Source: an uncultured Verrucomicrobiae bacterium (GTDB lineage Bacteria; Verrucomicrobiota; Verrucomicrobiia; Opitutales; JABDGR01). Taken from it: a stretch of DNA of 64,000 bases. Below the pieces are notes generated by a model. The model worked only from the letters and a program-made list of their open reading frames with translations. It made no database searches and was not told where the DNA came from. This document shows, piece by piece, positions 4,734 to 36,024 of this stretch (position 1 is its first letter; each line of letters opens with the position of its first letter). Where the stretch lies: the NCBI GenBank assembly GCA_963765205.1, contig CAVXVB010000008.1, forward strand, positions 65,076 through 129,075, written 5' to 3'. Both the position numbers and the translations under genes were made by a program.

Positions 4734-5586
4734 AGGTAATAAGGTGCAGCCTGACCCTCTATTGGCCCTCATGCCATGTTGTAGTTTGGTAAAAATTTCT
4801 TGTTAAACTCGATAGCAACCGAAGGCTTCCAATGATACTGCCCTTTCATATAATTTGAAAGGCCAGCGGCGTCCATGCAATCGAAACCGCCGATAGCCTG
4901 AGCGTCAAAATCACCCGGAGCTGCAATCACGATCAGCTCCCAGGAAATTCGGTCGCAAAATATTCCCCACTTGAGTGACGATCCCCAAAAAGCTCCAATA
5001 TCTACGCCAGCTAAAAACATTGGGCCATTTCGTACGCAATACATTGTAGACACGTATCTGTCAGTCAAATCCGCTGGCTTAAAAGAAGCTAGGCCGAAAA
5101 AGGAATTTCGCGGATAGTATCCATCGACTGGGTGCGGCTCTATCGTGATGTAATTGACCAACTCGTCGCCGAAATAACTGGCCGCTTTAAAGAGAAACGA
5201 CCCAAATTCCTTTTTGTAGATATAATGGTATCCAATAACAAAATATTTGGCGAAGGAACGTTTAAAAACAAAATCTGGCAGACGCTTTTGCATATCGATA
5301 ATTCCCGCACATTCTCGACTAAGAATGGAAAACGTGTCTCTTTCAACAACTATTTCGTTGGTGTTCATTATTATTTTCCTGTGCCAAAGTTTATCTTAAG
5401 TGGGAGTGCATCTGGGTCGGCTGGCATATAATCCGCTGCATTACCACCGGGGGCCGGAAAGGTCTCAGGCTGCACCTTATTACCCGAGTTTTTGGTGGAA
5501 GGATTGGATTGGAGGTTAGTGGCGCGAAGACGGCGGGCCGGAAAGGGGTCAGGGCCCGAAAGGGGTCAGGCTGCACCTTATTACCT
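4734..5586. mobile_element. AT-rich single-gene cassette bracketed by a perfect 24-bp inverted repeat (MITE-like; no transposase)
   Basis: aggtaataaggtgcagcctgaccc at 4734-4757 is the exact reverse complement of 5563-5586. An extra right-end copy sits at 5464-5483. A roughly 49-bp unit is directly repeated at 5464-5512 and 5566-5614. Confidence 0.35.
4769..5368 (-). CDS. hypothetical protein (AT-rich orphan, no recognisable domain)
   Basis: 199-aa ORF in markedly AT-richer DNA than its flanks. It sits between the inverted repeats. Confidence 0.6.
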   Translation of the reverse strand: MNTNEIVVERDTFSILSRECAGIIDMQKRLPDFVFKRSFAKYFVIGYHYIYKKEFGSFLFKAASYFGDELVNYITIEPHPVDGYYPRNSFFGLASFKPADLTDRYVSTMYCVRNGPMFLAGVDIGAFWGSSLKWGIFCDRISWELIVIAAPGDFDAQAIGGFDCMDAAGLSNYMKGQYHWKPSVAIEFNKKFLPNYNMA

Positions 5587-5633
5587 GAGTTTTTCATGTA
5601 GGATTGGATTGGGCTTGCTGGCGCAAAGAGTCA

Positions 5634-7019
5634 TCATGGAGTCGCCGTGGCCGCCGGTGCAGAGGACGCTGCCGGCGCGCCCGCGGTCTTCGTCGGGGCG
5701 TCCAGGCCGGTGCCGGTGACGTTGGTGAGGTTCAGCAAATTTCCGGTGAAGCCGGTGACGGTGATGTTGTTAAAGTTGGCGTTGACGACGTTCGCCAGGG
5801 TGATGCCGCGCTGGCAGGTGCCGGTAATGTTCGCGAGGGTCAGGCCTTCGATGGGCCGTTCGGGCGCGACGCCGGGGCCGGCGCGGCTGGCCTGCGTCTC
5901 GAAGAGCGTGCGGACGTTGTTGACTTTGATGTTCGTGAAACTGAGGTTGCGCACCAGGGTCCATTTCTCGATATCGCCGGGCACCGGCTCGGCGGCCTGG
6001 ATGCCTTTGGAAATCAGGTCAATGCCGACGAAGGTTGGCGAGGCGTCCACGGTGAGATTGTCGAAGGAAATGTTTTCCATATAGCCGCCGCGGCCGTCGC
6101 GGCTTTTGATGAAAATGGCGTTTTGCACGCCGGAAATCGTGCAGTTCGACACGGTGACGTTGCGCACGCCGCCGGAGATTTCCGTGCCGAAGCCGAGCGC
6201 GGCAAAGCGGACGCTGCGCAGGGTGCTGTCCTTGATGACGATGTTTTCCGAGGGTTTGTTGTAGCGCACGGCTTCCATCCCGCGCCCGGATTTGATGGAG
6301 ATGGCGTCGTCGCCCGCGCTGATGTCGCAATTCTCGACCACGACGTTGGCGTCGGAGTCTAGGTCCATGCCGTCGCCGTTGGTGCCCTGGCTGCGGATGT
6401 AGAGGCCCTTGACGACGACGTTGGTGCAAAACATGGGATGGATGCACCAGATGTCGGTGTTGACGGTGCGGTCGTATTGCAGGCTGAAGCCGTCGAACGT
6501 CACGTCGTTGCAGTCAATCGTTTCGAGGACGACGGGCGCGCGCGGGTTGCGGAGCGAGGCGAGGCCGGCGTTCGCCACGAAGCCGCCTGGCCCGACAATC
6601 GCAATGTGCTCGGCCTGGCTGGCAAAAATCATGGCGCGGTGCACCTGGGTCGTCGCGCCTTCAAAGCGCCCGGTGACGAGCGGGTAGTCGGCGATGTCCG
6701 GCGATTCGATGACGAACACGTCCTTTTCGAGTCGGAGCGTCGTGTTCGAATGCAGCTCGACGCTGCCGATGATATAATTGCCCGCAGGCACAACGACTTC
6801 GCCGCCGCCGGCCGCCGCGCAGGCGTCGAAAGCTTTTTGGAAGGCGGCGGTGTTATTCGTCGCATTGTCGCCGACCGCGCCGTAATCGCGCACATTGAAT
6901 TGCGCGGCGGCCTTGGCCGATGGGGCCGGGGAGGGTGCCGTGGCTTCAGCCGCTCCAATTGGGGTGCCAGCGAGGATCAGTAGACTAAGAATAGAAAGGG
7001 AAAGCGCGGTAGTTTTCAA
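5634..7019 (-). CDS. glycoside hydrolase family 28 (polygalacturonase/rhamnogalacturonase-like), secreted
   Basis: Signal peptide MKTTALSLSILSLLILAG. GH28-type motifs GTNGDGMDLD and AGDDAISIKSG. Parallel beta-helix repeat pattern. Confidence 0.8.
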   Translation of the reverse strand: MKTTALSLSILSLLILAGTPIGAAEATAPSPAPSAKAAAQFNVRDYGAVGDNATNNTAAFQKAFDACAAAGGGEVVVPAGNYIIGSVELHSNTTLRLEKDVFVIESPDIADYPLVTGRFEGATTQVHRAMIFASQAEHIAIVGPGGFVANAGLASLRNPRAPVVLETIDCNDVTFDGFSLQYDRTVNTDIWCIHPMFCTNVVVKGLYIRSQGTNGDGMDLDSDANVVVENCDISAGDDAISIKSGRGMEAVRYNKPSENIVIKDSTLRSVRFAALGFGTEISGGVRNVTVSNCTISGVQNAIFIKSRDGRGGYMENISFDNLTVDASPTFVGIDLISKGIQAAEPVPGDIEKWTLVRNLSFTNIKVNNVRTLFETQASRAGPGVAPERPIEGLTLANITGTCQRGITLANVVNANFNNITVTGFTGNLLNLTNVTGTGLDAPTKTAGAPAASSAPAATATP

Positions 7020-9526: not shown

Positions 9527-10720
9527 ATGGGCAAAATTCTCGTGGCCAACATCGGCAGCACCTCGTTCAAGTTCCGCTTGTTCGAGATGCCCGGCGAGCA
9601 ACTGCTTGCCAAGGGCGGCGTCGAGCGCATTGGCGCCGCCGACAGCCCGTGGCGTGTCGAGATCACGGGGCGCGCGCCGGCAGCGGGGACGGCGAAGTTT
9701 GCCAATTGCGACGAGGCCATCGCCCATGTGGAAAACGCGTTGCGCGGCACCGTGCTCGCGGGTTTCCATGAATTGGCGGCGGTCGGCTTTAAACCCGTGA
9801 TGGCCAAGGGCGTCAGCGGCACGCAGGTGATGGATGAAAAAGTACTGGGCGCGATGGAGGCGCTTTACACGCTGCTGCCCGCGCACAATCCGCCCTACGT
9901 CAACGCGGTACGCACGTTCAACCGGCTCTACCCGAAGCTGCCGTGCATCGGCACGTTCGAGACCGCGTTCTACGACCACCTGCCGGTCGAGAACACGCGC
10001 TTCCCGGTGCCGCTCGAATGGGAGCAAAAATTGGGCATCCGGCGCACGGGCTTTCACGGCGCGAGCCATCGGTTTGTGACCGAGCGTTTCGCGCAAATCA
10101 AAGGGCGCGCGGACTTGCGCCTCATCTCGTGCCACCTCGGCGGCAGTTCCTCGATCTGCGCCGTGCGCGCGGGAAAAGCGATTGATTCAAGCTGGGGGAT
10201 GACGCCGCAAAGCGGCCTGCCGCAGAGCAACCGCGTCGGCGATTTCGACGTGTTCGCGGCGTTCTACCTCGCGAAAGACCTGGGTCTCGGCCTTGAGCAG
10301 GTTGAAAAACAGTTGTCCACCAACGCCGGGCTCAAAGGCATGTCGGGCCTGGCCACCGGCGACGTGCGCGATGTCGCGGAAGCCGCCGCTGCCGGCAACG
10401 AAAACGCGCGCACCGCCCTCGCCGTTTTTAGCAATGCCATTCGCGGTTATCTCGGGCGCTTTCTCGTCGCGCTCAATGGCGCGGATGCCCTCATCTTCAC
10501 CGCCGGCATCGGCGAAAACCGGGTTGAGCTACGCGCAACCGTCTGCGCCGACCTTGATTTCTGCGGGCTGAAACTCGATGCCCAGGCCAACGCCACTACG
10601 CACGCCACCGAGGCGAAAATCTCCGCGCCCGACTCCAAAATCGAAGTCTGGGTGATTCCGACTAATGAAGAAATTGTGATCGCACGCAACGCGTGGGCGA
10701 AGCTGCAAGGAAGGAATTAA
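9527..10720 (+). CDS. ackA: acetate/propionate (acyl) kinase
   Basis: 397 aa. ASKHA-fold AckA signature regions (ILVANIGSTSFKF, RRTGFHGASH, IPTNEEIVIAR). Confidence 0.9.
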   Translation: MGKILVANIGSTSFKFRLFEMPGEQLLAKGGVERIGAADSPWRVEITGRAPAAGTAKFANCDEAIAHVENALRGTVLAGFHELAAVGFKPVMAKGVSGTQVMDEKVLGAMEALYTLLPAHNPPYVNAVRTFNRLYPKLPCIGTFETAFYDHLPVENTRFPVPLEWEQKLGIRRTGFHGASHRFVTERFAQIKGRADLRLISCHLGGSSSICAVRAGKAIDSSWGMTPQSGLPQSNRVGDFDVFAAFYLAKDLGLGLEQVEKQLSTNAGLKGMSGLATGDVRDVAEAAAAGNENARTALAVFSNAIRGYLGRFLVALNGADALIFTAGIGENRVELRATVCADLDFCGLKLDAQANATTHATEAKISAPDSKIEVWVIPTNEEIVIARNAWAKLQGRN

Positions 10721-10922
10721 GGTTTATGATTTAAGAAGTAAAAAGTAAAAATTACGAGTTACGAAACAAAATTCCAAAAAACGAACCCCGTCATTCTTTT
10801 CTGAAATTTCAAAGCCGAAACCGAAATCTGAACCTGAACCTAGAAACTCGAAACTAAAAATCCGAAACACCAAAGCAACAACTTTTAACCTGCAACTTGC
10901 AACCTTCAACCTATATAAAACT

Positions 10923-11213
10923 ATGTCCCAACAAGCCATTGGATTGATTGAAACCCGCGGTCTGGTCGCGCTCGTCGAGGCGACGGACGCCATGCTCAAG
11001 TCGGCCAACGTCGAGTTGGTCGGCCCGCTGACCCAGGTCGGCAACGCGATGGTCACCGTCGTGGTGACCGGCGATGTCGCCGCGGTCAAGGCCGCGACGG
11101 AAGCCGGGCGCACCGCCGCGCAATCGCTCGGCGAAGTCGTGTCCGTCAGCGTCATCGCCCGCCCGCATGGCGACCTCACCACCGTCCTGCCCAAGCTGCC
11201 GGTGAAGAAATAA
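10923..11213 (+). CDS. BMC-H shell protein
   Basis: [34 protein letters not shown]... Confidence 0.9.
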   Translation: MSQQAIGLIETRGLVALVEATDAMLKSANVELVGPLTQVGNAMVTVVVTGDVAAVKAATEAGRTAAQSLGEVVSVSVIARPHGDLTTVLPKLPVKK

Positions 11214-11324
11214 TCCGGCGCGGGTGCCTATTCAGGGCGTCCGCCTGGACGGCTGCTTGCGTCGTCGTCGCGGCGCTCGCCGTTTCACCGGCGGCGCCCT
11301 CCTCAACTCCAACTCCTCTCTGCC

Positions 11325-11636
11325 ATGATTCTCGCCCGTGTCGAAGGCTACATCGTTTCCACCAAAAAGAATGCGAAGATGACCGGCTCGAAATTCCTGT
11401 TCGTGCGGCCCCTCCTCGTGGACCCGGCCAACTTGCAGGGCTTCAAGCCCGGCGCCAATACCATCGTCGCGGTGGACGACCTCGGGGCCGGCGAGGGCGA
11501 AGTCGTCCTCATCGCCCAGGGCAGTTCCGCGCGCCTGGGCGCGAAGGACAAGGACACGCCCATTGACGCCATTGTCATCGGCATCGTGGACACGGTGGAC
11601 GTGGGCAAGAAGGTCGTCTATGCGGCCAACAGCTAA
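11325..11636 (+). CDS. BMC-P vertex protein (EutN/CcmL family)
   Basis: MILARVEGYIVSTKKN...AVDDLGAGEGEVVLIAQGSSAR...AIVIGIVD. Confidence 0.85.
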   Translation: MILARVEGYIVSTKKNAKMTGSKFLFVRPLLVDPANLQGFKPGANTIVAVDDLGAGEGEVVLIAQGSSARLGAKDKDTPIDAIVIGIVDTVDVGKKVVYAANS

Positions 11637-11643
11637 CCAAATA

Positions 11644-11725
11644 AATGGAAGATGGAAAAATCAAGCCAGACAAAAACTAAAATCCACGGACAATCGTAGA
11701 AAGTTTTTTCCATTTTCCATCTTCC
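11644..11725. repeat. stutter-word inverted repeat (atggaagatggaaaa / ttttccattttccatcttcc)
   Basis: Left arm at 11644-11660, right arm at 11705-11725, between the BMC-P and aldehyde dehydrogenase genes. Confidence 0.6.
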
Positions 11726-11752
11726 TTTTTCCATTCCCAACTCCCTCTTCCC

Positions 11753-13177
11753 ATGGACCAGCAGCAAATCATCTCTCGCGTCGTGGCCGAGGTGCTCGCG
11801 CGCCTGCAGACGCAGCAGTCCGCCGCGCGCAGCGGGCAGACCGGCTTCGGCGTTTACGACAAGATGGAGGACGCCATTGCCGCCGCGCAAAAATCATTCG
11901 TGCAATTGCGCGAGGAGGGCGTGACGGCGCGCAAGAAGGCCATCGCGGCGATCCGGCGCACCTGCGTGCAGAACGCGAAAGCGTGGGGCGAAATCGAATT
12001 CGCTGAGACGAAAATCGGCCGCCTCGAACACAAAATCGAAAAGCTCAAAATCTGTTCGGAGCTGGTGCCGGGCGTCGAGATGCTGGAACGCATGGCCTTC
12101 AGCGGCGATTTCGGGCTGACGATCATTGACTTCGCGCCCTGGGGCGTCATCGGCGCGGTCACGCCGGCCACGCACAGCGTGCCGACGCTCACGGGCAACG
12201 CCATAAACATGCTGGCGGCGGGCAACAGCGTGGTTTACAACACGCATCCCTCGGCCTGCGGCGTCGCGGCACTGGCCATCCGCGCCTACAACGAGGCGAT
12301 TTTTGCGGAGACCGGCATTCCCGACCTGCTGGCCACGGTCGTCAAGCCCACACTCCAGACCTTTGACGTGATGTGCAAGCATCCCGATGTGAAATTGCTT
12401 TGCGTCACCGGCGGCCCGGCGGTCGTCGCGGCGGCGATGAAGGCCGGCAAGCGTGCGGTTTGTGCCGGCCCGGGCAATCCGCCGGTGGTGGTGGACGAAA
12501 CGGCGTGCCTCGAACGCGCGGCGCGCTGCATCATCCAGGGCGCGGCCTACGACAACAATTTGCTCTGCATCGGCGAGAAACAGGTATTTGTCGTCGAGTC
12601 GGTCGCCGACGGCCTCATCACCGCGCTCAAAAACGCGGGCGCGGTGCAACTTTCGCCGGCCCAGATTGAGGCGCTGACGAAGCAGGCGTTCACGATTGAG
12701 CCGGGGCAGGGCGGGGGCTGCGCGCACGCGCACGTCACCAAATCCTTCATTGGGCGCGACGCCGCGGTGCTGGCGAAGGCGATCGGCCTCGACGTGCCGC
12801 CGGCCACGATGCTCCTGTTTGGCGAAACCAAGGAAGACCACCTCTTTGTGCAGGAGGAGCAGATGATGCCCTTCATCCCGATAGTGCGCGTGAAGAATGT
12901 GGACGAGGCCATCGCCGCGGCCATCCGCAGCGAGCACAACTACAAGCACACGGCCATCATGCACAGCCGCAACATCACGAACCTCACCAAGTTCGCCCAA
13001 CTCGCCGACACCACGCTTTTCATCAAAAACGGCCCGTGCATGACCGGCCTCGGCCTCGGCGGCGAGGGCTTCCTCTCCTTCTCCGTCGCCACCCCGACGG
13101 GCGAAGGCGTGACGACGCCGATGACGTTCACGCGGTCGCGGCGGTGCGTGATGGTGGAGAACCTAAATCTTTATTAA
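11753..13177 (+). CDS. CoA-acylating aldehyde dehydrogenase (PduP/EutE-like) with N-terminal encapsulation helix
   Basis: 474 aa. ALDH fold with a catalytic Cys context (NNLLCIGEK). N-terminal QQQIISRVVAEVLARLQ amphipathic helix. Confidence 0.85.
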   Translation: MDQQQIISRVVAEVLARLQTQQSAARSGQTGFGVYDKMEDAIAAAQKSFVQLREEGVTARKKAIAAIRRTCVQNAKAWGEIEFAETKIGRLEHKIEKLKICSELVPGVEMLERMAFSGDFGLTIIDFAPWGVIGAVTPATHSVPTLTGNAINMLAAGNSVVYNTHPSACGVAALAIRAYNEAIFAETGIPDLLATVVKPTLQTFDVMCKHPDVKLLCVTGGPAVVAAAMKAGKRAVCAGPGNPPVVVDETACLERAARCIIQGAAYDNNLLCIGEKQVFVVESVADGLITALKNAGAVQLSPAQIEALTKQAFTIEPGQGGGCAHAHVTKSFIGRDAAVLAKAIGLDVPPATMLLFGETKEDHLFVQEEQMMPFIPIVRVKNVDEAIAAAIRSEHNYKHTAIMHSRNITNLTKFAQLADTTLFIKNGPCMTGLGLGGEGFLSFSVATPTGEGVTTPMTFTRSRRCVMVENLNLY

Positions 13178-13262
13178 TGGAAAATAGAAAAATAAAACCC
13201 AAAACCGAATTTATTTTCCACCAACTTCCGCCATTTTTTCCAGCTTCCATTTTCCATCTTTT
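13176..13262. repeat. stutter-word inverted repeat (aatggaaaatagaaaaa / ttccattttccatc)
   Basis: Same word family as 11644-11725. Located between the aldehyde dehydrogenase and the second BMC-P. Confidence 0.5.
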
Positions 13263-13268
13263 ATTCTT

Positions 13269-13547
13269 ATGCGTTTGGCCATCATCCGCGGTTATGTCAC
13301 CTCGACCGTGAAGCACAAAAGCTTCAACGGCGCGCGGCTGCTCATCGCGCAACCGGTGGACCTGGCGGACAAGCCGGACGGGCCGCCGCAGGTGGTCGTG
13401 GACCCGCTTGGCACGGCGCTGCACGAAAAAGTTATTCTCTGCAGCGACGGCAGTTGGGCGCGCACTTATTTGAAGGACCCGCGCAGCCCGTGCCGCTGGT
13501 GGATCATGGGCATCGTGGACGAAGCCACGGAAGGGAGCGTCGCATGA
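13269..13547 (+). CDS. BMC-P vertex protein (EutN/CcmL family)
   Basis: MRLAIIRGYVTSTVKHKSFNGARLLIAQP... Confidence 0.8.
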   Translation: MRLAIIRGYVTSTVKHKSFNGARLLIAQPVDLADKPDGPPQVVVDPLGTALHEKVILCSDGSWARTYLKDPRSPCRWWIMGIVDEATEGSVA

Positions 13548-13840
13548 GGCTCGCTACCGTCATCGGCCGGGTCACGCTCTCCGTGCGGCATCCGGCGCTC
13601 AACGGCGAACGCCTGCTCGTCGCGCTGCCGTGGGGGCCGAAAACGGCGCAGACCGGCCAGGACCACGATTATTCCATCGTCGTTTACGACCAGTTGGGCG
13701 CCGGCCCCGGCGGCACCATCGGCGTGTGCGAAAGCACCGAGGCCACCCGCCCGTTCGAGAAACCCACGCCCGTGGACGCCTATTGCGCCGCGCTGATTGA
13801 CACCGTTTTTTACCAACCCGAGGACCCGCACCGCGCGTGA
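13544..13840 (+). CDS. BMC-P vertex protein (EutN/CcmL family)
   Basis: Met at 13544 (MRLATVIGRVTLSVRHPALNGERLLVA...). ATGA overlap with the preceding gene. The upstream part of the track ORF is not coding-like. Confidence 0.8.
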   Translation: MRLATVIGRVTLSVRHPALNGERLLVALPWGPKTAQTGQDHDYSIVVYDQLGAGPGGTIGVCESTEATRPFEKPTPVDAYCAALIDTVFYQPEDPHRA

Positions 13841-13876
13841 TGCCCGGCTTTGGCCGCGCTCTGCGCCCCATCCATT

Positions 13877-14968
13877 ATGAAACTCTTCTCCCAAAAAGAA
13901 GCCGCTGAATTTGCCAAATCCGGCGTCAAGGAATTCCGCTTCAGCCGCGAATCCACGCGGATGACGCCCGGCGCGCGCGACGTGCTCGTCGCCGCCGGCG
14001 TCAAAATCATCTACGACCCCAACGCCGGGGCCGCGCCGACTGCCGCGCCCGCCGCGGCCAAGCCCGCCGAGCCGGCGAAAAGCGCCGCGTCCGCGCCCGC
14101 CGCCTCGAAGGGCGACATCCTCGCGCTGTTTAATTCGCCGCTCGCGAAAAAACTCAAGGACGACATTGTTGAAATCGGCAGCCGCTGCTGGAAGCGCGAT
14201 TACAACGACGGCAACGGTGGCAACATCTCCGCCCGCCTCGGCAATTATTTTCTCTGCACGCCCACCGGCGTCAGCAAGGGTTTCATGAAGCCCGACATGG
14301 TCTGCCTCGTGGACGTCGAGGGCAACCAGCTCGCCGGCAACGCCCCCTGGAAGCGCACGAGCGAAATCCTCTCGCACCTCGGCATCTACAAAACGGTGCC
14401 GACCGCCGCCGCCGTCGTCCACGCGCACCCGATCCACGCCACGGCGTTTGCCATGGCTGGCCTCGAACCGCCGCAATGCCTCATTCCCGAGGTCGAGGTT
14501 TTTGTCGGCACGATCCCCGTCGCCGAATACAAGACGCCCGGCAGCCCGCAGATGAGCGAAATTCTCGGGAAACTCGCGCCGCAGCACCAGTCCATCCTGA
14601 TGGGCAACCACGGCGTGATCTGCTGGGGCGTCAGCGTCGAGGACGCCTATTTCAAGATGGAGATCACGGACTCCTACTGCCGCACGCTCTGGGTCGCCGC
14701 GCAGTTGCCGACCAAGCGCACGACCATCCCGGCCAACGAGGTTAAAATCCTGCTCGACCTCAAAAAGAAATTGGGCCTGCCCGACGAGCGCCTGAATTTG
14801 AAGACCGCCGACCTGTGCGATTGCGACCCCTGGGAGCAAATCGCCGACCGGCAGGTGACGAGCGCGACGCCCGCCGGCCCCTCACCCGCGAAAATGACCA
14901 ACGCCGAACTCGAAGGCCTCGTGCAAAAACTCACCGAGGAAGTGATGGGGCAGTTGGGGAAGAAGTGA
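13877..14968 (+). CDS. class II aldolase (fuculose/rhamnulose-1-phosphate aldolase-like) with N- and C-terminal extensions
   Basis: The aldolase_II core runs from about residue 100 onward (GNGGNISARL..., HAHPIHATAF). It carries a 45-aa N-terminal domain, an Ala/Pro linker and a C-terminal amphipathic helix (AELEGLVQKLTEEVMGQLGKK). Confidence 0.8.
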   Translation: MKLFSQKEAAEFAKSGVKEFRFSRESTRMTPGARDVLVAAGVKIIYDPNAGAAPTAAPAAAKPAEPAKSAASAPAASKGDILALFNSPLAKKLKDDIVEIGSRCWKRDYNDGNGGNISARLGNYFLCTPTGVSKGFMKPDMVCLVDVEGNQLAGNAPWKRTSEILSHLGIYKTVPTAAAVVHAHPIHATAFAMAGLEPPQCLIPEVEVFVGTIPVAEYKTPGSPQMSEILGKLAPQHQSILMGNHGVICWGVSVEDAYFKMEITDSYCRTLWVAAQLPTKRTTIPANEVKILLDLKKKLGLPDERLNLKTADLCDCDPWEQIADRQVTSATPAGPSPAKMTNAELEGLVQKLTEEVMGQLGKK

Positions 14969-15018
14969 AGTCGCGTTCTGTCTTGCTTGAGTTTAGCTAT
15001 CAGGAATAGCTTCCAAGC

Positions 15019-15657
15019 ATGTCACCGGCAGATGTTGCTCTCGTTGTCACCGAACTCAAAAGGCTTGGCCCCATCCAACCTTCGTCGGATCGTTGCTGGA
15101 AGCGGCTTCCGGCATTAAAGGCGATTGATTGTGTTTTATCCTTAAACCGGCATTACGATCACTTCGTTGTTCCACGACTCGATCGGTTTGAATCGTCGTA
15201 TCCTGCTGTTCAAAAAATTCAGGATTTGCGCGGATTCATCAATACATTTCCGACACTGGCAGTTTTTATGGAAAAAGCATTGGATTATCATGATGCGGCT
15301 AGGGCGGAAACTTTATCGGGAGTGGTGGATTATGTTATAGGCGAGATTCAACGAATGAAGATGGATTCAGAAGAAACTTCGCTTAAAAAATGGGCGAATG
15401 ATGCCCGCCCACAAGATTATTTGATGGTGCATGTCCATGGTTTTGGACTGGCGGGCTTTCAATACCTGCGAATGCTCTTTGGCGCAAACACCACCAAGCC
15501 CGATGTCCATATTCGCGCTTATGTGGGCAAGGTGCTAAACCGTTCCGTGAGTGATTTGGAGGCGCTTGATTTCTTGCAGCATGCCGCGGAGCAGAGCGGC
15601 GTGAAACTCCGGGACTTGGACACGACGATTTGGGAGGCATCCGCGCGCGGTGCGTAA
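15019..15657 (+). CDS. hypothetical protein with helix-hairpin-helix (HhH-GPD-like) motif
   Basis: AT-richer 212-aa ORF. GFGLAGFQYLRMLFGANTTKPDVHIRAYVGKVL resembles the HhH plus following-helix motif of the EndoIII/glycosylase superfamily. The assignment is weak. Confidence 0.5.
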   Translation: MSPADVALVVTELKRLGPIQPSSDRCWKRLPALKAIDCVLSLNRHYDHFVVPRLDRFESSYPAVQKIQDLRGFINTFPTLAVFMEKALDYHDAARAETLSGVVDYVIGEIQRMKMDSEETSLKKWANDARPQDYLMVHVHGFGLAGFQYLRMLFGANTTKPDVHIRAYVGKVLNRSVSDLEALDFLQHAAEQSGVKLRDLDTTIWEASARGA

Positions 15658-15662
15658 GCGAG

Positions 15663-15938
15663 TTAATCAAATTTCCCGCTTTGGTTCAGGCGATGCACTT
15701 CGGTGTGATTGCCGAGAAACTGGACGTGAAGACCGTCCTGGGCATCCAGGAAAACGAGGCGCCAATGCAACCCCGCCCGGCACTCGAAAGTGTGTCGCCG
15801 CAATTTGCGGATGTCGAGGCCACTGTGGAGATGTGGCTGGCCGAATTCCTCGCACAAGCGGCCCAGAGCGAGCCAGCAGGCCTGCTTTTCCAATTCAGGC
15901 AGAACGGCGATTTTTGCCTGGACGGTGGACAGAATGAT
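15663..15938 (-). CDS. RelE/ParE-superfamily toxin (start codon unresolved)
   Basis: The C-terminal 90 aa (...LPELEKQACWLALGRLCEEFGQPHLHSGLDIRKLRRHTFECRAGLHWRLVFLDAQDGLHVQFLGNHTEV) fit the RelE/ParE-like pattern. There is no ATG near the domain start. It overlaps the antitoxin 3' end. Confidence 0.55.
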   Translation of the reverse strand: MILSTVQAKIAVLPELEKQACWLALGRLCEEFGQPHLHSGLDIRKLRRHTFECRAGLHWRLVFLDAQDGLHVQFLGNHTEVHRLNQSGKFD

Positions 15939-16221
15939 GAGCGATTTTTTCGCGCAGTTGTTCAGGGGTGAAACGATATTTTTCCAATTCGCCGGAGGCG
16001 CGCAGGCGTTCAGCCAGTGCTTCAGAAGCGTCGGCGAGCCGGTCAAGTTGTTCCTCCGTCACGCCGTATTCGCGCTGGGCGTAGTCGGAGGACTCGATGG
16101 GCACCTTGCGCAGGGCGATGATGTCGGCACCGCTGACAATGCCGATATCCTGGCCGGCCGCGGCGGCTTTGAGCCACTTGCCGAGGTTTTGCTTCGCGCT
16201 GGTGATGGTGAGAGTATGCAT
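15895..16221 (-). CDS. Phd/YefM-type antitoxin
   Basis: MHTLTITSAKQNLGKWLKAAAAGQDIGIV... has a typical Phd/YefM N-terminus. It lies directly upstream of the toxin frame. Confidence 0.65.
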   Translation of the reverse strand: MHTLTITSAKQNLGKWLKAAAAGQDIGIVSGADIIALRKVPIESSDYAQREYGVTEEQLDRLADASEALAERLRASGELEKYRFTPEQLREKIAHHSVHRPGKNRRSA

Positions 16222-16336
16222 ACAGCCTTTATAGAGATTTTTAAGAGGCTGTCAAGATTGGCTTGGGACACCATCGTGTGGTTTCTCTCTTTTGGTTTTA
16301 CACCATGCGCGGAAACGGGCACAATCTTGTTTTCTT

Positions 16337-17749
16337 ATGGCTTCTGTAACCTGTGCGGCGGTGGATTTGGGCGCGACGAGCGGGCGCGTCATCGTCGGCG
16401 TCTGGGGTAAAAAGCCTGCGCTGACGGAGGTTCACCGTTTCCCGAACGCCTTCCACGCCCTCGGGGTTCACGATTACTGGAACCTGCCTGGATTGTGGAA
16501 TGAGGTGTGCACGGGCCTGCGCAAGGCGAAGGCGCAGTTCCCGAAGCTCGCGTCCGTCGGCGTGGATTTTTGGGGGTGCGACCATGTGCTACTCAACGAC
16601 GCCGGGCGCCTCGTGTTCCCGCCGCACGCCTACCGCGACGCCCGCACGCAGGCCGGCCTCCAGGCGCTGGCCGCGCGCGGCCTCGACCACATCTACGCCG
16701 CCACCGGCCTGCCGAACGTCTTCTATAATTCGAGCCTCCAACTCGCGGAAGTCGTGCGCAACTGCCCGGCCGTCACCGACCTCGCCACGCGCTGCCTGTT
16801 TTTGCCGGACTATTTCAATTACCTGCTCGCGGGGCGGATGGAGAATGAAATGTCCATCGCCAGCACCACGCAATTGCTCGACGTGCATGGGCGGGACTGG
16901 TCGCGCGCGGCGCTCGAATTTTTTCATATTCCCCCGCAATGGTTCACGCCGCCGGTTTTGGCGAACACGAAGCTCGGCCGCGTGCGCGGGCTGCCGGAAC
17001 TCAAGAGCGTCACGTCCATTGTCGTCCCGGGGCACGACACCGCGTGCGCCTACGACGCGATGCCGGCCGACCCCGCGGGCGGCGACTTGTATATCAGTTC
17101 CGGCACCTGGTCGCTGGTCGGCTGCGAGAACGACACGCCGATCCTCGGCCCCGAGGCGCTCCAGGCCCACGTGGCCAACGAACGCACCGGCCGCGGCGGT
17201 TATCGTCCGCTCACGAACATCGTCGGCCTCTGGCTGCTCGAACGGACGCTGCTCGATTTCAGCGCGCGCCCGCAGAGCGCCGGCGAATGGGCCGCGCTCA
17301 TCAAAGCCGCGGAAAAATTGCCCGCGCCGAAAGTCCTGCTCGACGTGAACGACCCGGTTTTCGGCAACCCCCCCTCGATGCGCGCCGCGATTGACGCGCA
17401 GCTCAAAAAGAAAAAAGCCCGGCCGCCGGCGAACGTCGCGGGCTACGCGCGCCTGATTTTCGACTCGCTCGGCGCGGGCCATGCCGGCGCGTTGCGGATG
17501 CTCGCGCGCCTCGGCGGGAAAACCTTCCGGCGCATCCTCATGGTCGGCGGCGGCGCGAAAAACCGGCTGCTCTGCCAGGCGACGGCCGACGCCGCGGGCG
17601 TGCCGGTCGTGGCCTTCGCGCTCGAAGGCACCGCGCTGGGCAACCTCGCCAGCCAGTGGGTCGCCCTCGGCGTGGTCCGCGACCGCGCGGCCTTCCGCGC
17701 CCACCTCGCGCCCACCCTCCAGCAAACCATTTACACGCCCCGCAATTAG
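16337..17749 (+). CDS. rhaB: rhamnulokinase (FGGY family)
   Basis: From the Met at 16337: MASVTCAAVDLGATSGRVIVG...GVDFWGCDHVLL...AYRDARTQ...LFLPDYFNYLLAG... This aligns in pattern with RhaB. Confidence 0.8.
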   Translation: MASVTCAAVDLGATSGRVIVGVWGKKPALTEVHRFPNAFHALGVHDYWNLPGLWNEVCTGLRKAKAQFPKLASVGVDFWGCDHVLLNDAGRLVFPPHAYRDARTQAGLQALAARGLDHIYAATGLPNVFYNSSLQLAEVVRNCPAVTDLATRCLFLPDYFNYLLAGRMENEMSIASTTQLLDVHGRDWSRAALEFFHIPPQWFTPPVLANTKLGRVRGLPELKSVTSIVVPGHDTACAYDAMPADPAGGDLYISSGTWSLVGCENDTPILGPEALQAHVANERTGRGGYRPLTNIVGLWLLERTLLDFSARPQSAGEWAALIKAAEKLPAPKVLLDVNDPVFGNPPSMRAAIDAQLKKKKARPPANVAGYARLIFDSLGAGHAGALRMLARLGGKTFRRILMVGGGAKNRLLCQATADAAGVPVVAFALEGTALGNLASQWVALGVVRDRAAFRAHLAPTLQQTIYTPRN

Positions 17750-17813
17750 GCTGACTTTCCGCCGGGAATCTGTCTCAAAATTGAAAAACGAAATGATTTC
17801 GCACGAATGCCGC

Positions 17814-17883
17814 GGGCGCAGCAAGCCTGCGCCCCTACAAGAGAACCGACGCGACCCTGGAGGGGCGCAGTCTCGCTGCGCCC
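17814..17883. repeat. REP-like palindrome pair (gggcgcagcaagNctgcgcccc family)
   Basis: Hairpin at 17814-17835 and an inverted copy at 17862-17883. Other copies are at 19041-19062 and 28306-28375, with a degenerate copy near 31041-31075. Confidence 0.7.
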
Positions 17884-17918
17884 GCTTCGAAAGGAGTTTG
17901 CGCGGAATTTTTTCTTTG

Positions 17919-18028
17919 CCGCCTCAGTGCCTCAGTGTCTCAGTGCCTTAGTCCCTCAGTCGCCTCAGTCGCTTTAGTCGCCTCAGTGCCTTTGTCCCTC
18001 AGTCCCTTTGCCCCTTCGCCCTCTCCTC
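17919..18028. repeat. degenerate tandem 8-9-mer array (cctcagtgc)n forming the lutA leader
   Basis: About 11 consecutive variants of cctcagtgc / cctcagtcg / ccttagtcc end 2 nt before the lutA start. Confidence 0.7.
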
Positions 18029-18029
18029 A

Positions 18030-18800
18030 ATGAGCACCCCCTCCCCCACCCGCCCGACCGGCCACCGCGTGCAAATGCTCGCCACCTGCCTGTGCGACGC
18101 GTTTTTCGACGACGCCGCGCGCGCGACCGTCGAGGTGCTCGAACACCTCGGCTGCGCCATTGATTTTCCCGAGACGCAAACCTGCTGCGGGCAGCCGGCG
18201 TTCAACGCGGGCGACTGGCCGGCCTCGCGGCGCGTCGTGCGGCACACCGTAAAAGTTTTTGCCGGCGACGCGCCGGTCGTCGTGCCCAGCGCGTCCTGCG
18301 CGGCCATGCTCATCCACGGCGCGCCCCTCGAATTTGAAAAAGAAGCCGACCACGGCAACGTCGAAAAACTCGGCGGGCGCACCTGGGAACTCGCGGACTT
18401 CATTGTCAACGGCCTCGGCGTGAAAACGTGGCCCGGAAAATACCCGGCGAAAATCGCGTTCCACACCTCCTGCCACTCGCGCGGCACGAAAAGCGGCGAG
18501 GCGACGATCAGTTTGCTGCGCTCCATCGCGGGCGTGGAAGTCGTCGTTTTTGGCGAAGGCGAGCAATGCTGCGGTTTCGGGGGCACGTTCTCGGTCGCCT
18601 TCCCGAATATTTCGACCGGCATGGGCAACCTAAAACTCGAACACGTCCGCGCGGCCAATCCCGACGTGCTCGTCTCCGGCGACTCGAGCTGCCTGATGCA
18701 CCTCGCCGGCCTGGCGGAAAAAGAAGGCCACCCCCTCCGCACCCTCCACTTCGCGCAAATTTTAAGAGACGCGCTGAAGAACGGCGGGGTGCTCGGGTAG
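18030..18800 (+). CDS. lutA: lactate utilization protein A (CCG-domain Fe-S oxidoreductase)
   Basis: Two CCG motifs (TCCGQPAFN, QCCGFGG). LutA/YkgE-like. An alternative start is the Met at 18075. Confidence 0.85.
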   Translation: MSTPSPTRPTGHRVQMLATCLCDAFFDDAARATVEVLEHLGCAIDFPETQTCCGQPAFNAGDWPASRRVVRHTVKVFAGDAPVVVPSASCAAMLIHGAPLEFEKEADHGNVEKLGGRTWELADFIVNGLGVKTWPGKYPAKIAFHTSCHSRGTKSGEATISLLRSIAGVEVVVFGEGEQCCGFGGTFSVAFPNISTGMGNLKLEHVRAANPDVLVSGDSSCLMHLAGLAEKEGHPLRTLHFAQILRDALKNGGVLG

Positions 18801-32109: not shown

Positions 32110-32354
32110 GAATGTTGATTTTGGGGTTCGTTGCAAGACCGATACAATTCAATCTCTAATAGAACTGCTGAAATTAGCATATTCCAATGTTACTTTTAAG
32201 AAGGCAAAATTCCACCCATCAGATTATAGCTTGAAATACACATAGCTTGTTTGGCAGGTGATGGGGACTTCGCAAGCTTGCTCATCTATGAGTGCGACGC
32301 TGCGTAGCAAGCCGCCATCGCCGTTTCAAATCTACCCCCCTCCCCAAATAAATC

Positions 32355-32383
32355 TTGCGCGGACCCGGCCATTTCCCGATAAT
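32355..32383 (+). promoter_or_regulatory. sigma70-like promoter upstream of the orphaned tRNA 5' fragment
   Basis: ttgcgc (32355-32360), a 17-nt spacer, then gataat (32378-32383). This is about 36 nt upstream of the tRNA fragment. Confidence 0.45.
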
Positions 32384-32419
32384 CACCGCTTGCCTGCGTG
32401 CCCCCTGGGCGCGGCGCAG

Positions 32420-32458
32420 GCCGGGATAGCTCAGTTGGTAGAGCGGCGCATTCGTAAT
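32420..32458 (+). other. tRNA-Thr 5' half fragment (att repeat, left island border)
   Basis: gccgggatagctcagttggtagagcggcgcattcgtaat matches 35630-35668 with one D-loop mismatch (t versus c). The sequences diverge after the anticodon loop. Confidence 0.8.
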
Positions 32459-32878
32459 TCCAAACTACGCTTAATCTTTTTAAGTATTATTGATTGTGAC
32501 GAGTTCTGATTGTTGAAAGAACTCGTTTTACGAGGGGAAAATGCCAGCAGGCGAAAAAATCGCCCGGCCTAGGCAAAAAACTTAAAAAAATGCGAATGCG
32601 CGCATTCGTTCATCAGGTTACAGGTCAGGGTTACAGGTTGTCTATTATGGCACTTAGACTTTAGGCAAAGGTGAAATCTCACACTGGCCAGCACCCAGCA
32701 CAAAAAACTTTCCGACGAAACCAAGCTTTCGAAGAAGCAAAGTTGCAATTAGCTGGTGAAGGGGGATTCGCAAGCTTGCTCATCCATGAGTGCGACGCTG
32801 CGTAGAGGCGGTAGCGCTCTAAGGCCGCGCGGCCAAGGAAATTGCTTCGCAATTTACAAGGCAGGAAGGCAGAACTTC

Positions 32879-33760
32879 TTAGTCGTTTTCCATCTTAAAA
32901 GTCTGGCGGCAACGGGGGTAATTTCTGCACCCCCAAAAAGTTCCCCTTGGCCCCTGCCGTTCAACCATCTTCACATCGCAACGAGGGCACGTCGGGGTGG
33001 TATAGTCCCCGGCTGTTATTTCGGCCAAAATTTCCCGGCGTGCTGCCTCGGGCAGTTGGTTCAGGTCTTTAAGCAGGTCAGAGCCGCTCACAAGGACAAG
33101 GGACTGACCCCGCGCGAATTGCACCGCCTCGGCCGTAAAGTCGCCCGTCGTCACAAAGAAGCCATGGCCCACCTTTTCCGCAGCCATGACCCCCAATAGC
33201 TCCCTGACGGGTTTGACGCCCACCGTGTAAACCCGCCATGCCTTGCACTGGACAAAGGCCGCAGGCTGCGATTCTCCGGGGTGGCTGATGATGATATCCA
33301 CGCCGCCATCCGCCCCTACCCTGTTCCGTCGCGCCACGTAGCCGGTCTTTTGGAAGTAGAGCGTCACCAGCATTTCCAAACGCCGCCATTCGAGTGCGGA
33401 TAGCAATTCAGGAGTAAAGCCTATGGGTTCAGGTGTGACGGAGGCTGGCGGCGCTCGCCACGCCCATGGTTCAGGAGTAAAATGTATGGGTTCAGAGGTG
33501 ACAGCGGCAGGCTGCGCTTGGGTGAGCCAGGGATGAGCGACCCGTAAAGAGGCATTCGGCTGGGTTGAAACGGAGCGGTGCTTAGCCTTCATCTTGATAC
33601 GCACCACCAAGGCGATTACCCCCACGCAGACAACAACGATGGCCGTCCATAACACCAGAGCGCGAAACTGCGGGGAGACTGTCCACCCTAATATAAACAG
33701 CCCCGCCAAGAGCGCTATTAGCTCAATCCAGTGTGCTTCCCGTTTACGGCTGCGACGCAT
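32879..33760 (-). CDS. membrane-anchored restriction-endonuclease-like (Mrr_cat) protein with C-terminal topoisomerase-type C4 zinc finger
   Basis: From the Met at 33758-33760: two TM helices, a PD-(D/E)xK-like core (GADGGVDIII...FVQCKAW) and CPRCDVKMVERQGPRGTFWGCRNYPRC. Confidence 0.7.
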   Translation of the reverse strand: MRRSRKREAHWIELIALLAGLFILGWTVSPQFRALVLWTAIVVVCVGVIALVVRIKMKAKHRSVSTQPNASLRVAHPWLTQAQPAAVTSEPIHFTPEPWAWRAPPASVTPEPIGFTPELLSALEWRRLEMLVTLYFQKTGYVARRNRVGADGGVDIIISHPGESQPAAFVQCKAWRVYTVGVKPVRELLGVMAAEKVGHGFFVTTGDFTAEAVQFARGQSLVLVSGSDLLKDLNQLPEAARREILAEITAGDYTTPTCPRCDVKMVERQGPRGTFWGCRNYPRCRQTFKMEND

Positions 33761-34192
33761 GGGGTAGTCAAGATTTGAGGTGAAGAAATCGCAAGTGAAG
33801 GCAAACATAGGCAGTGTCCTAACTTGGAAGTCATTGATTGTCAAACGACTAACGGAAATACCTGTCGACAAATAGATTGCGGCCCAAAAACCACCCAAAC
33901 TAATTTCATTGCCCACCGGGCAGGGGGTGGACAATGATTTGGAGACGAACATATTTAACCATGCCCAGCAAGAACAAAGAGCTTACGTATTTCGGCTAGG
34001 CAACCAAGCCTTATTTAAGGCCACCCAAAATACGACGGTGGGCAATTACGGTTTCACAATCAAAAAGCCTTTTTTGGCCGCATCTTTATTTTCACTTACA
34101 AGCATGGTTGGAACCGAAGCAACATGGGATATTGCGGCTATAAACAGGCGTCAGGGTGTATTGGCCGAACTTGCTGTTATCGCATGGCCAAT

Positions 34193-34321
34193 TTAGTTCG
34201 CCAAAATCATCATCCTTACCCACTCCGACAAATCCAACCCCCGCAACCTAGCCTTTTCCTCAATAGCCTCCAGTTCGTCCTTTCCAATCCTGCATGTTAC
34301 GAGGACAGCAAGCGCCAGAAG
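34193..34321 (-). CDS. possible ribbon-helix-helix mini-protein (no canonical start)
   Basis: Open frame of at most 42 codons ending ...GKDELEAIEEKARLRGLDLSEWVRMMILAN*. It resembles the RHH/MobC-type motif. Confidence 0.25.
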   Translation of the reverse strand, partial: LLALAVLVTCRIGKDELEAIEEKARLRGLDLSEWVRMMILAN

Positions 34322-34415
34322 TTACCATGGTAACCTTCCCGAAGGTTCTACCGCTATCTTTTTCAAATGTCATGCACGATTTCTTCTGTCGAATGTTCTA
34401 TATATAAACAAGGTT

Positions 34416-34447
34416 AGGCCCGGCGCCGCTTGCGCGGCGCCGGGCCT
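34416..34447 (-). terminator. perfect 14-bp GC hairpin downstream of the integrase
   Basis: aggcccggcgccgc-ttgc-gcggcgccgggcct, 19 nt after the int stop. Confidence 0.5.
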
Positions 34448-34465
34448 TATTCCTTGCTTGGATTT

Positions 34466-35536
34466 TTACGACACTATCCGGCTTGCCATCTCAGCGGAGT
34501 GCGTGTCTCGCAAATGCCCGTAGGTGCGTGCAACGAGAATGCCGCCGTCCTTGTGTCCAATCCAAGCGGCGATCGTTTTAAAGTCCACGCCTTTTTCGAG
34601 GACGTTGCTGACGAAGTAATGCCGCAAACAATGGTGGGTGAAGTGCGGCCAGCCCTTAAATTTGCAGACCGAGTTAAGGGCTTTTTTTGCGTCCGAAATT
34701 GGCACCAGAGGCTCGTTAGGACTGGGGTGGCGGGTTTCCCTGACCCTGTCCAGAAAGTCGCGCAGGACGGGGAATAGAGGCACTACGCGGGCCTCCTGGT
34801 TCTTGGTTCCCGTTGCTCCGCCCGTCACCGTGAAGGTGCTACGCTTGAAGTCCACATCCGCCAAACGAAAGGCGTTCGCCTCACCTTTGCGCATACCAGA
34901 ATAAGCCAGTAATTCTATCAAATCAGCCGCGGGTTCAGTTCTGGTGCTGCGTTTGCGAAGGAAATCAACCATCCATGCAAATTGCTCCCGGCTTGGAATG
35001 ACAATCGCCGCTTTGGGTTGCCGACGTTTTTGGATGACCTCAGCCGGGTTATCCAAAATCAAGTTTTCGCGCTTGGCGTATTTCAGGACAAGCAGCAGGG
35101 TATCGCGTTCCAAATTGAAGGACGCCGCCGCCACATGGTGACTGCGCTCACCCGCCCAGTCTTCACACGTTCCCCGGGTTACGTTTCGGACCGGAAGAGT
35201 GCCAAAGGTGGTCTTAAGTTGCCTGATGGCGAGCTCGCGGCGCAACCTTGAGCTTTCCTTGAGGTGTCCGCGCCAAGTGGCAAACCACTTGTCCGCCACC
35301 TCACCGAAGGTCAGGCGGGCGAGCTCGCGGGTGGGTTGGATGCCGCCGACCTTCTCCTTAAGCTGCATCAGGAGCCGCTCAGCCAGCCGTCTATCACAAG
35401 TTTTCAAAGAGCGACGGATTTGCTTGCCCCCGCGTTTGAAAAGCGCATAGTAGATGCCGGATGCGTTACACCGATACAGGCATTCAGCAACGAGTGTGTA
35501 ATCCTGCGATTTCGCGGGATTCTGTGAGTTTTCCAT
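34466..35536 (-). CDS. tyrosine-type site-specific integrase
   Basis: 356 aa. C-terminal catalytic motifs HHCLRHYF and GHKDGGILVARTYGHL. SAM-like N-terminal domain. Confidence 0.9.
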   Translation of the reverse strand: MENSQNPAKSQDYTLVAECLYRCNASGIYYALFKRGGKQIRRSLKTCDRRLAERLLMQLKEKVGGIQPTRELARLTFGEVADKWFATWRGHLKESSRLRRELAIRQLKTTFGTLPVRNVTRGTCEDWAGERSHHVAAASFNLERDTLLLVLKYAKRENLILDNPAEVIQKRRQPKAAIVIPSREQFAWMVDFLRKRSTRTEPAADLIELLAYSGMRKGEANAFRLADVDFKRSTFTVTGGATGTKNQEARVVPLFPVLRDFLDRVRETRHPSPNEPLVPISDAKKALNSVCKFKGWPHFTHHCLRHYFVSNVLEKGVDFKTIAAWIGHKDGGILVARTYGHLRDTHSAEMASRIVS

Positions 35537-35629
35537 GCCCTCAAACCTATCAGGTTACAGGTGCGGGTTACAACACTGTATTTCAGGGGGCATCAAACAT
35601 TTTCTAACTCGTTGATTTTCAACGATTAG

Positions 35630-35705
35630 GCCGGGATAGCTCAGCTGGTAGAGCGGCGCATTCGTAATGCGTAGGTCGTCGGTTCAAATCCGATTCCCGG
35701 CTCCA
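35630..35705 (+). tRNA. tRNA-Thr (anticodon CGT)
   Basis: 76 nt. Acceptor stem gccggga/tcccggc. D arm gctc-agctggta-gagc. Anticodon arm gcgca-ttCGTaa-tgcgt. T arm gtcgg-ttcaaat-ccgat. CCA is encoded. Confidence 0.9.
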
Positions 35706-35719
35706 TTTTTTTCAAGGAA

Positions 35720-35975
35720 GGGACAAAAGGACAGAGGCACTGAGGGTAAGAAAAAAACCCTCGCAACTTTCCCTGCTTCGAACCTGAACGCCTCAACGCT
35801 TTTGCCCATGTGGTCTCGGTCTTGCTTCCGCCGCCTTTGTCCCTCAGTCCCTCTGTCCCTGTCTCGCTTCCGCGCCTATGCCCTCAGTGCCTCAATGCCT
35901 CAGTGCCTTTGTCCCTGTTTCGCCTTCGCGCCTTTGTTCCTCTGTGCCTCTGTCCCTTTGCTCCTCTGCCCCACT
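35720..35975. repeat. cctcagtgc/ctctgtccc stutter-word tract with an inverted purine-strand arm
   Basis: ggacaaaaggacagaggcactgaggg at 35720-35745 opposes multiple ccctcagtgcctc / ctctgtccct words at 35834-35975. Confidence 0.6.
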
Positions 35976-36024
35976 GCTCCTTCTTGATTGCCCCTCCCGC
36001 CAATTTCTGCTCCACTCCCCGGCG

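Follow-up and report, generated by a model that had tools for sequence, protein, structure and literature searches.

A small integrase-carrying island replaces the front half of a tRNA-Thr gene in an uncultured Verrucomicrobiae bacterium

Introduction

Most genetic elements that integrate into tRNA genes carry the 3′ part of their target, and the usual argument for why tRNA genes tolerate such insertions is that the element replaces the 3′ end only, with the host promoter continuing to work. Here we analyse the opposite arrangement in a 64,000-nt stretch of DNA (the window) from an uncultured Verrucomicrobiae bacterium (contig CAVXVB010000008.1), in which a small island carrying a tyrosine integrase gene sits in a tRNA-Thr gene and replaces the gene’s front half, not its usual back half.

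Recombination on the 5′ side of tRNA genes is reportedly the finding for which Zhao and Williams, in 2002, are cited. The corresponding 5′ class of islands shares with the window an intact tRNA gene, an upstream 5′ fragment in the same orientation and a tyrosine integrase gene between the two, and in both the target is restored with element-derived 5′ sequence and severed from its own promoter; in the present case, the polarity is shown to be clade-wide in Verrucomicrobiota and is accompanied by a fixed layout of arm-type sites. The class is a minority: the counts given for the Islander database are 3760 islands with a 3′ fragment of the tRNA gene (tDNA) versus 159 with a 5′ fragment (PMC4383910). 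An account of pTN3-like archaeal integrases states that these use the tRNA 5′ half and that the rebuilt tRNA is expressed from the element, a situation it calls “seldomly encountered” in bacteria (PMC8371274). The pTN3 and TKV4 elements of Thermococcales thus resemble the window element in that the chromosomal attachment site, attB, is the 5′ half of a tRNA gene and the rebuilt gene is parted from its original promoter and said to be element-expressed. They differ in that their integrases are “suicidal”, with the element’s attachment site (attP) inside the integrase gene, which is split on integration, whereas the window attP lies outside an intact gene; their lineage is archaeal, whereas that of the window element is bacterial and probably lambda-type. 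Phage P22 integrates at thrW, the tRNA-Thr(CGU) gene of Salmonella. P22 and other classical anticodon-loop integrators (the symmetric sublocation of Williams 2002) resemble the window element in a crossover placed in the 7-bp anticodon loop, with the stem as inverted repeat, and in the use of different tRNA identities within one integrase subfamily while the sublocation is kept; however, they carry the gene from the anticodon loop to the 3′ end with the integrase gene downstream, whereas the window element carries it from the 5′ end to the loop, with a divergent integrase gene upstream.

Results

The island duplicates the 5′ half of its target tRNA gene

The single tRNA gene in the window is a tRNA-Thr(CGT) at 35630-35705 on the + strand (ARAGORN; Rfam 70.3 bits), intact and with CCA encoded. 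A repeat search of the window identified a 41-nt direct repeat, 32418-32458 versus 35628-35668, that is 98% identical and whose sole mismatch, T32435 versus C35645, falls in the D-loop. The repeat, from tRNA position -2 to position 39, takes in the whole 5′ half, the anticodon loop and one further base. We assign the left copy, on the + strand, as the core of attL, a displaced 5′ half of host origin, and the right copy, also on the + strand, as the core of attR, an island-derived 5′ half that is completed by the host 3′ half; the two copies of the anticodon loop (32451-32457 and 35661-35667) represent the presumed 7-bp overlap. Bounded by the repeat are 3171 bp of island-specific DNA (32459-35629; repeat spacing 3210 bp), with a G+C content of 0.45-0.60 compared with 0.60-0.72 in the flanks. 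The same integrated form is present in a Logan contig (L001). An initial annotation of the window, made from the letters alone, had proposed an integrase island at this tRNA gene, with the intact gene at the right border beside a tyrosine integrase and a second attachment-site copy consisting of the tRNA 5′ half with one D-loop mismatch; ARAGORN, Rfam, Pfam and the repeat search uphold both points, and its coordinates for the repeat, the tRNA and the integrase are all correct.

The configuration matches that used to define islands in Islander. The tRNA gene and the fragment are both on the + strand and 3210 bp apart, the fragment is an end fragment (positions 1-39) that lies upstream of the tDNA, and the 3.2-kb interval (allowed, 2-200 kb) contains a tyrosine integrase gene. 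It also corresponds to the anticodon-loop sublocation of Williams 2002, as judged from where the identity block stops: position 39 for the window, and 37-39 for another eight islands of the same integrase family.

Related genomes indicate which half is foreign

A search of one genome per species with the transglutaminase-like protein encoded downstream of the tRNA retrieved seven Opitutales genomes (70-83% protein identity), six of which (L003-L008) contain the tRNA region. Each of the six has one uninterrupted tRNA-Thr(CGT) followed by the same downstream genes, encoding a transglutaminase-like protein, AroE and PilD. We reconstructed the empty site by joining window positions 32340-32458 to 35669-35740 and aligned it with these six regions. 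In the 80 nt that precede the orphan fragment, identity to the tRNA upstream region is 60-64% for the two closest relatives, L003 and L004, and 51-58% for L005-L008, whereas the equivalent 80 nt before the intact window tRNA match the relatives at only 25-33%, which is chance level. The conserved upstream stretch includes a CTTGCGCGG ... GATAAT promoter, and a homologous TTGC..GATAAT promoter precedes the tRNA in L003-L008, with no insertion between promoter and tRNA. In the window this native promoter (TTGCGC-17-GATAAT, 32355-32383, + strand) is orphaned and would drive only the displaced 5′ fragment. A consensus scan misses it, as its -35 hexamer matches at only 3 of 6 positions, yet it is conserved upstream of the same tRNA in the relatives, and its initial identification from the letters alone stands.

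The D-loop base points the same way. The T at 32435 in the orphan fragment is the base found in 5 of 6 relatives, L005 differing only at the adjacent base, and the C of the intact window gene (35645) is present in none of the six. Because the relatives have an uninterrupted tRNA behind a promoter homologous to the orphan one, it is the island that supplied the 5′ half: the left fragment and its promoter are host DNA, and the 5′ half of the working gene, with everything upstream of it, is island DNA. The initial annotation had proposed exactly this division, a displaced fragment that keeps its promoter and a functional tRNA with an island 5′ half, and had suggested looking for an empty site in related genomes; the upstream identities, the D-loop base and the six Opitutales genomes give the predicted result. 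The genes encoding CDF and Hsp20 upstream of the island are not adjacent to the tRNA in the relatives, so the empty-site argument rests on the promoter and the downstream side.

The integrase is intact, with a predicted lambda-type architecture

The integrase gene (34466-35536, - strand) encodes a whole protein of 356 aa (PF00589, E 2e-15; PF14659) that is covered by homologues over 100% of its length. Its start codon lies 93 bp from the 5′ end of the tRNA and the two genes are divergent; the att core is thus 93 bp outside an unbroken open reading frame (ORF), which sets the element apart from the “suicidal” SSV/pTN3 type. R216, K245, H302, R305, H328 and Y339 fall in alignment columns that are invariant across 40 homologues, and we take these six residues to be the catalytic set. 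Catalytic residues and fold both identify a tyrosine recombinase, with Foldseek matches at E 1e-12 to Tn1549 Int and lambda Int.

An AlphaFold model of the protein (predicted local distance difference test (pLDDT) 85) contains an N-terminal four-stranded beta-sheet plus helix at residues 13-65 (pLDDT ~90), a part of the protein for which Pfam gives at most a weak DUF6538 match. This predicted sheet and helix fit an arm-binding domain. Against full-length lambda Int (1z1b), the model gives an alignment of 364 columns, and its three modelled domains (N-terminal sheet and helix, core-binding and catalytic) likewise align at full length with 1z1g and 5j0n. The likeness to lambda Int extends to repeated arm-type sites on both sides of the core, but sequence identity is 17-18% and the window copy lacks an excisionase gene.

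Homologues of the integrase number 957 at E <=1e-10, all from Verrucomicrobiota where the source names the organism. Among 50,697 phage records, identity is 24-27% for the listed matches and stays below 60% in each of the 373 records that matched. We considered and rejected a prophage, as the only cargo is nucleases, without structural or lysis genes, and phage integrases are only distantly similar.

Arm-type sites have conserved sequence and spacing

The repeat search also returned an arm repeat, ATCAGGTTACAGGTnnGGGTTACA, at 32612-32635 and 35549-35572 (92% identical); exact GGTTACAGGT occurs three times in the 64-kb window, each time within these two places. We assign two arm-type sites to each arm, all on the + strand: the P′ arm (32612-32640) has GGTTACA at 32616 and 32629, 157 and 170 nt from the crossover, and the P arm (35549-35572) has GGTTACA at 35553 and 35566, 77 and 64 nt before the tRNA start.

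With all integrase-tRNA spacers of the family oriented alike, the order of elements is constant: integrase start codon, ~12 nt, GGTTACAA-N5-GGGTTACAAG, a c-AAtTT block, ~45 nt, tRNA. The spacer is roughly 90-150 bp long (93 bp in the window), and in most members, whichever tRNA is targeted, the start of the second GGTTACA is 60-65 nt from the tRNA, with the first 13 nt more distant (75-76 nt). P′ pairs in the same orientation are found at +124 to +129 and +136 to +142 in L019, L053, L058 and the loci of two cultured carriers (L089 and L090, below). More distant integrases (38-40% identity) have the same layout with a different repeat, ATTGCAAC, a co-variation of repeat and integrase that would be expected of protein-binding sites. 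The assignment of the GGTTACA pairs as arm-type sites is well supported by this conservation of sequence and spacing across the integrase family, which places on firmer ground the initial proposal, drawn from the two window repeats, that they mark a bona fide att structure. One family member, L072, has inverted arm sites and an integrase ORF that lacks the N-terminal domain.

5′-side polarity is a habit of the integrase family

Scanning metagenome contigs with the 40-sequence alignment yielded 80 loci (38-66% identity), 65 of which have enough upstream sequence for a tRNA count. At 60 of these 65 loci, the integrase gene has an intact tRNA 50-310 nt upstream, on the opposite strand and thus divergent. 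Arg tRNAs account for 38 loci (anticodons CCT, TCT, CCG, TCG and ACG), Thr for nine (TGT and CGT), Met for eight (CAT), Lys for two (CTT and TTT), and Ser (GCT), Gln (CTG) and Val (GAC) for one each. On every contig that reaches the far end of the island, the repeat is the tRNA 5′ half in the same orientation.

Nine mapped islands, including the window and two in cultured isolates, duplicate tRNA positions 1 to 37-39. Those from metagenomes are L019 (Arg-TCT; positions 1-39 in two tandem copies, 2.6 and 3.9 kb from the tRNA), L053 (Met; 1-39, 2.5 kb), L058 (Met; 1-38, 4.6 kb), L072 (Thr-TGT; 1-37, 4.6 kb) and L048 (Thr-CGT; 1-37, 13 kb). The cultured carriers are Rubellicoccus peritrichatus (CP136920.1; L089, locus 9836-18517), with an 8.6-kb island at tRNA-Arg(CCT), and Cerasicoccus fimbriatus (L090, locus 9834-16008), with a 6.1-kb island at tRNA-Arg(TCT), both duplicating positions 1-38. 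These comparisons show that 5′ polarity is the norm for a whole Verrucomicrobiota integrase clade, whose targets are tRNAs for Arg, Thr, Met, Lys, Ser, Gln and Val. The arrangement had initially been treated as a one-off, a view that the divergent tRNA-integrase layout shared by 60 of 65 family loci overturns.

In three of the five exceptions (L029, L055 and L056), the integrase gene and arm sites are followed, within the 250 nt upstream of the integrase gene, by a bare tRNA 5′ half without a 3′ half, which looks like the internal junction of a tandem array, or like attP. L056 additionally has an intact tRNA-Arg(CCT) ~220 bp away, inverted. At L048 (410-13834), the 5′ fragment (positions 1-37, 100% identical) is 13.3 kb off, the family integrase gene lies mid-interval (4881-5981) and a second, different integrase gene is found at 11849-12856, as in a composite or tandem island. 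L022 (38-84, 4215-4290) has a tRNA-Arg(CCT) with the family integrase on its 5′ side and, 4.1 kb downstream, a perfect 47-nt 3′ fragment (positions 30-76) enclosing HTH_17 and PIN genes but no integrase gene; here, elements of opposite polarity seem to have exploited the two ends of a single tRNA gene.

A candidate promoter for the rebuilt tRNA overlaps the arm sites

As the integrase gene points away from the tRNA, the rebuilt gene must be served by a promoter in the 93-bp spacer or by one running antisense inside the integrase gene. Family-wide, the first arm site includes a -35-like hexamer (GTTACA, GTGACA or TTGCAA). A hexamer of the form nAnnnT, such as CAAAAT, TAAATT, GAATTT or GATAAT, follows 16-18 nt beyond it in 33 of 42 non-identical members, compared with 24% from the downstream background; the family sequences share descent, so this count measures conservation and a binomial P overstates independence. 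Read from the aligned sequences, the -10-like block is absent after the P′ arm pairs, and is therefore probably not simply part of an arm site. Its position next to the integrase-proximal arm pair suggests an island-borne tRNA promoter. In the window, the candidate is GTTACA in the first arm site, 17 nt, then TGTATT (35554-35582, + strand). It predicts a leader of ~40 nt, close in length to the native one (the native -10 ends 36 nt before the tRNA).

In L072, the repeat between island end and host flank reaches ~50 nt past the tRNA on its upstream side and takes in a near-consensus TTGACA-17-AAAAAT that is homologous to the native promoter of the target, so that this island carries a copy of its target’s promoter besides the 5′ half. 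Read in reverse complement, the arm sites yield a TTGTAA-16/18-TAnnnT on the other strand that stops 7-8 nt short of the integrase ATG; that this is a nearly leaderless integrase promoter is speculative.

The orphan native promoter, for its part, points into the island. Beyond the crossover by 42-73 nt lies a terminator-like hairpin, CGAGTTCT-10-AGAACTCG followed by TTTTAC (32500-32531, + strand). At the same place, L019a and L019b have stronger hairpin-plus-U5 terminators, L053 has a weak one and L058 has none. It is plausible that the hairpin stops transcripts from the orphan promoter and so insulates the element from the tRNA promoter.

The window element is a reduced member of its clade

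The full-size relatives in R. peritrichatus and C. fimbriatus encode the integrase, a 260-aa ORF (orf260), an excisionase-like HTH_17 protein, a REP_ORF2-G2P rolling-circle initiator and variable defence cargo, with SIR2 in one isolate and a methylase together with NotI in the second. In small members from metagenomes, the cargo is ParE toxins or uncharacterised ORFs. The window copy is without orf260, HTH_17 and REP_ORF2-G2P: a tblastn search of the window for the three found nothing inside the island better than E 0.5, and the best match anywhere, at E 0.023, is outside the island.

Its cargo comprises two nuclease-related genes. An Mrr-like nuclease of 357 aa with a C-terminal topoisomerase-type zinc ribbon (32879-33952, - strand; Mrr_cat 3.4e-28, Zn_ribbon_Top1 1.5e-11) also matches PADLOC PDC-S02 and type IV methyl-directed restriction models. 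A 95-aa ORF (33909-34196, + strand; GmrSD_C 2.2e-9) aligns with positions 477-559 of the 562 in the PADLOC HEC-06 model, and thus covers only the last ~80 residues of GmrSD/HEC-06-type nucleases, which are ~560 aa long; it is the C-terminal remnant of a truncated defence gene, indicating decay or deletion inside the island. Given the missing orf260, HTH_17 and Rep genes, the truncated GmrSD gene and the altered P′ spacing, the island is best described as a reduced or decayed derivative of a larger int-xis-rep element that has kept an intact integrase and restriction-type cargo.

Discussion

We consider it very probable that the window contains a 3.2-kb reduced integrative element whose attP carried the tRNA 5′ part, that its own lambda-type tyrosine integrase inserted it into the anticodon loop of tRNA-Thr(CGU), and that the rebuilt tRNA is transcribed from island DNA. 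In the proposed sequence of events, an attP bearing tRNA positions -2 to 39 would undergo strand exchange with the gene within the 7-bp anticodon loop. With the 5′ part on attP, the right border would rebuild the gene from the island 5′ half and the host 3′ half, and the left border would strand the host 5′ half together with the native promoter. The best candidate for transcribing the rebuilt gene would then be a sigma-70-like promoter whose -35 falls within the first arm site, followed 17-18 nt later by a conserved -10-like nAAWTT. This polarity was called atypical by the initial annotation, and it is indeed rare (159 of the 3919 Islander islands), although it had already been documented as a minority class; what the present comparison adds is clade-wide polarity, a fixed att architecture, a candidate promoter overlapping the arm sites, and cultured carriers.

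Several observations weigh against this interpretation. The P′ sites of the window (+157 and +170) are shifted away from the crossover by ~29 nt relative to those of six relatives, and with these shifted sites and no excisionase gene the element may have lost its mobility. In the same population, neither an excised circle nor an empty site was seen; two Logan contigs from it (L001 and L091; ERR11630400) end inside the repeat and are uninformative, and a search with the upstream CDF protein for such an empty site gave no match. A 57-nt direct repeat that straddles attL (D3, below) is left unexplained by the model. Finally, the window hexamer TGTATT is without the conserved A, and a consensus promoter scan of 35537-35629 finds nothing; both make expression of the window copy uncertain.

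The alternative that survives best accepts integration as described and holds that the rebuilt tRNA-Thr(CGU) is poorly transcribed or silent, the island promoter having been lost from the window copy and ACG codons being read by another tRNA-Thr. It draws on the place of the window among the 9 of 42 members without nAnnnT at the conserved position, on a best promoter score in the spacer of only 3.6, and on the other signs of decay in the island. Yet the tRNA sequence is intact at 70 bits, TGTATT matches TATAAT at 4 of 6 positions, and promoter rules for Verrucomicrobiota are not established; the inspection for other tRNA-Thr genes covered 64 kb of the genome. We regard a silent gene as possible but rather unlikely.

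It is also conceivable, though unlikely, that the AAWTT block and the GGTTACA pair serve recombination only, as arm sites plus a bending or IHF-type site, and that the promoter is nearer the tRNA, for example around a recurrent yATAAGTCATT-like motif ~20 nt upstream. Many members do show another patch of weaker conservation at 18-27 nt from the tRNA start, where several of them (L018, L036 and L046) have TATAAT-like hexamers. That patch, however, is much less conserved (<=1.0 bit at single columns), and the AAWTT block follows only the tRNA-adjacent pair and not the P′ pair.

The view that an ancient tRNA pseudogene or a local duplication gave the 5′ fragment, with an integrase nearby by accident, could draw on the tiny, partly decayed island with its GmrSD remnant and on the unexplained D3 repeat flanking the fragment, but it is highly improbable given that the fragment stops exactly at the anticodon loop and carries the native promoter that relatives have before a whole gene, that relatives without the insertion exist, and that the configuration recurs with seven other tRNA identities, both across 60 of 65 family loci and in eight further mapped islands.

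Returning to integration with an island-borne promoter, a doubtful extension of it would have the arm sites overlap back-to-back integrase and tRNA promoters in the spacer between the two genes, such that arm occupancy sets host tRNA expression and the orphan promoter yields a terminated 5′ tRNA half. The targeted tRNAs mostly read rare codons (Arg CCU, UCU and CCG; Thr CGU), and if arm occupancy did control the tRNA, the element would acquire a means of influencing host translation, and the host would come to rely on it for that tRNA. More generally, elements of this polarity have to supply both a functional promoter and a correct 5′ half, which makes host tRNA supply dependent on foreign DNA. 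The window locus, ~60 related loci and two cultured carriers form a coherent family in which to study tRNA transcription after integration, its regulation through arm sites and the fate of the orphaned promoter. For island-finding software and annotation, the implication is that calling a displaced 5′ fragment a pseudogene would be a mistake when it has a strong promoter.

Additional sequence features

Two further hairpins lie within the island. A perfect 14-bp stem just past the integrase stop codon (34416-34447) resembles a bidirectional terminator. A 16-bp palindrome, CGAATGCGCGCATTCG (32593-32608), is followed by a T-run on the - strand and is likewise terminator-like. The palindrome had initially been reported as 14 bp and counted, because it repeats anticodon-stem sequence, in favour of an att structure; it is real and in fact slightly longer, but it is not att evidence, being unconserved, with no counterpart in six related islands, and terminator-like. 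By our estimate, the chance of a 10-nt match to some part of the 41-nt repeat in a 3.2-kb island is ~0.2. When the region before the P′ sites in seven islands was compared with each island’s own anticodon arm, forward and inverted, no consistent match was found, and the att role was rejected; a terminator hairpin is the more likely reading.

The D3 repeat (32251-32307 and 32749-32805; 89% identical) has its first copy in host DNA, 48 nt upstream of the orphaned native promoter, and its second inside the island, 291-347 nt from the crossover. No further copies were found in the window, in 90 related loci or in viral contigs, and D3 shows neither an RNA structure signal nor a conserved reading frame.

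Just downstream of the tRNA, at 35716-35977, is a run of C/T-rich 8-nt periodic repeats (CCTCAGTG, CCTCTGTC, CCTTTGTC and similar), which has an inverted partner at 35716-35746 and overlaps the 5′ end of the longest transglutaminase-like ORF. A similar AGGAGCAGAGGAGCAAAGG stretch follows the tRNA of the relative L004.

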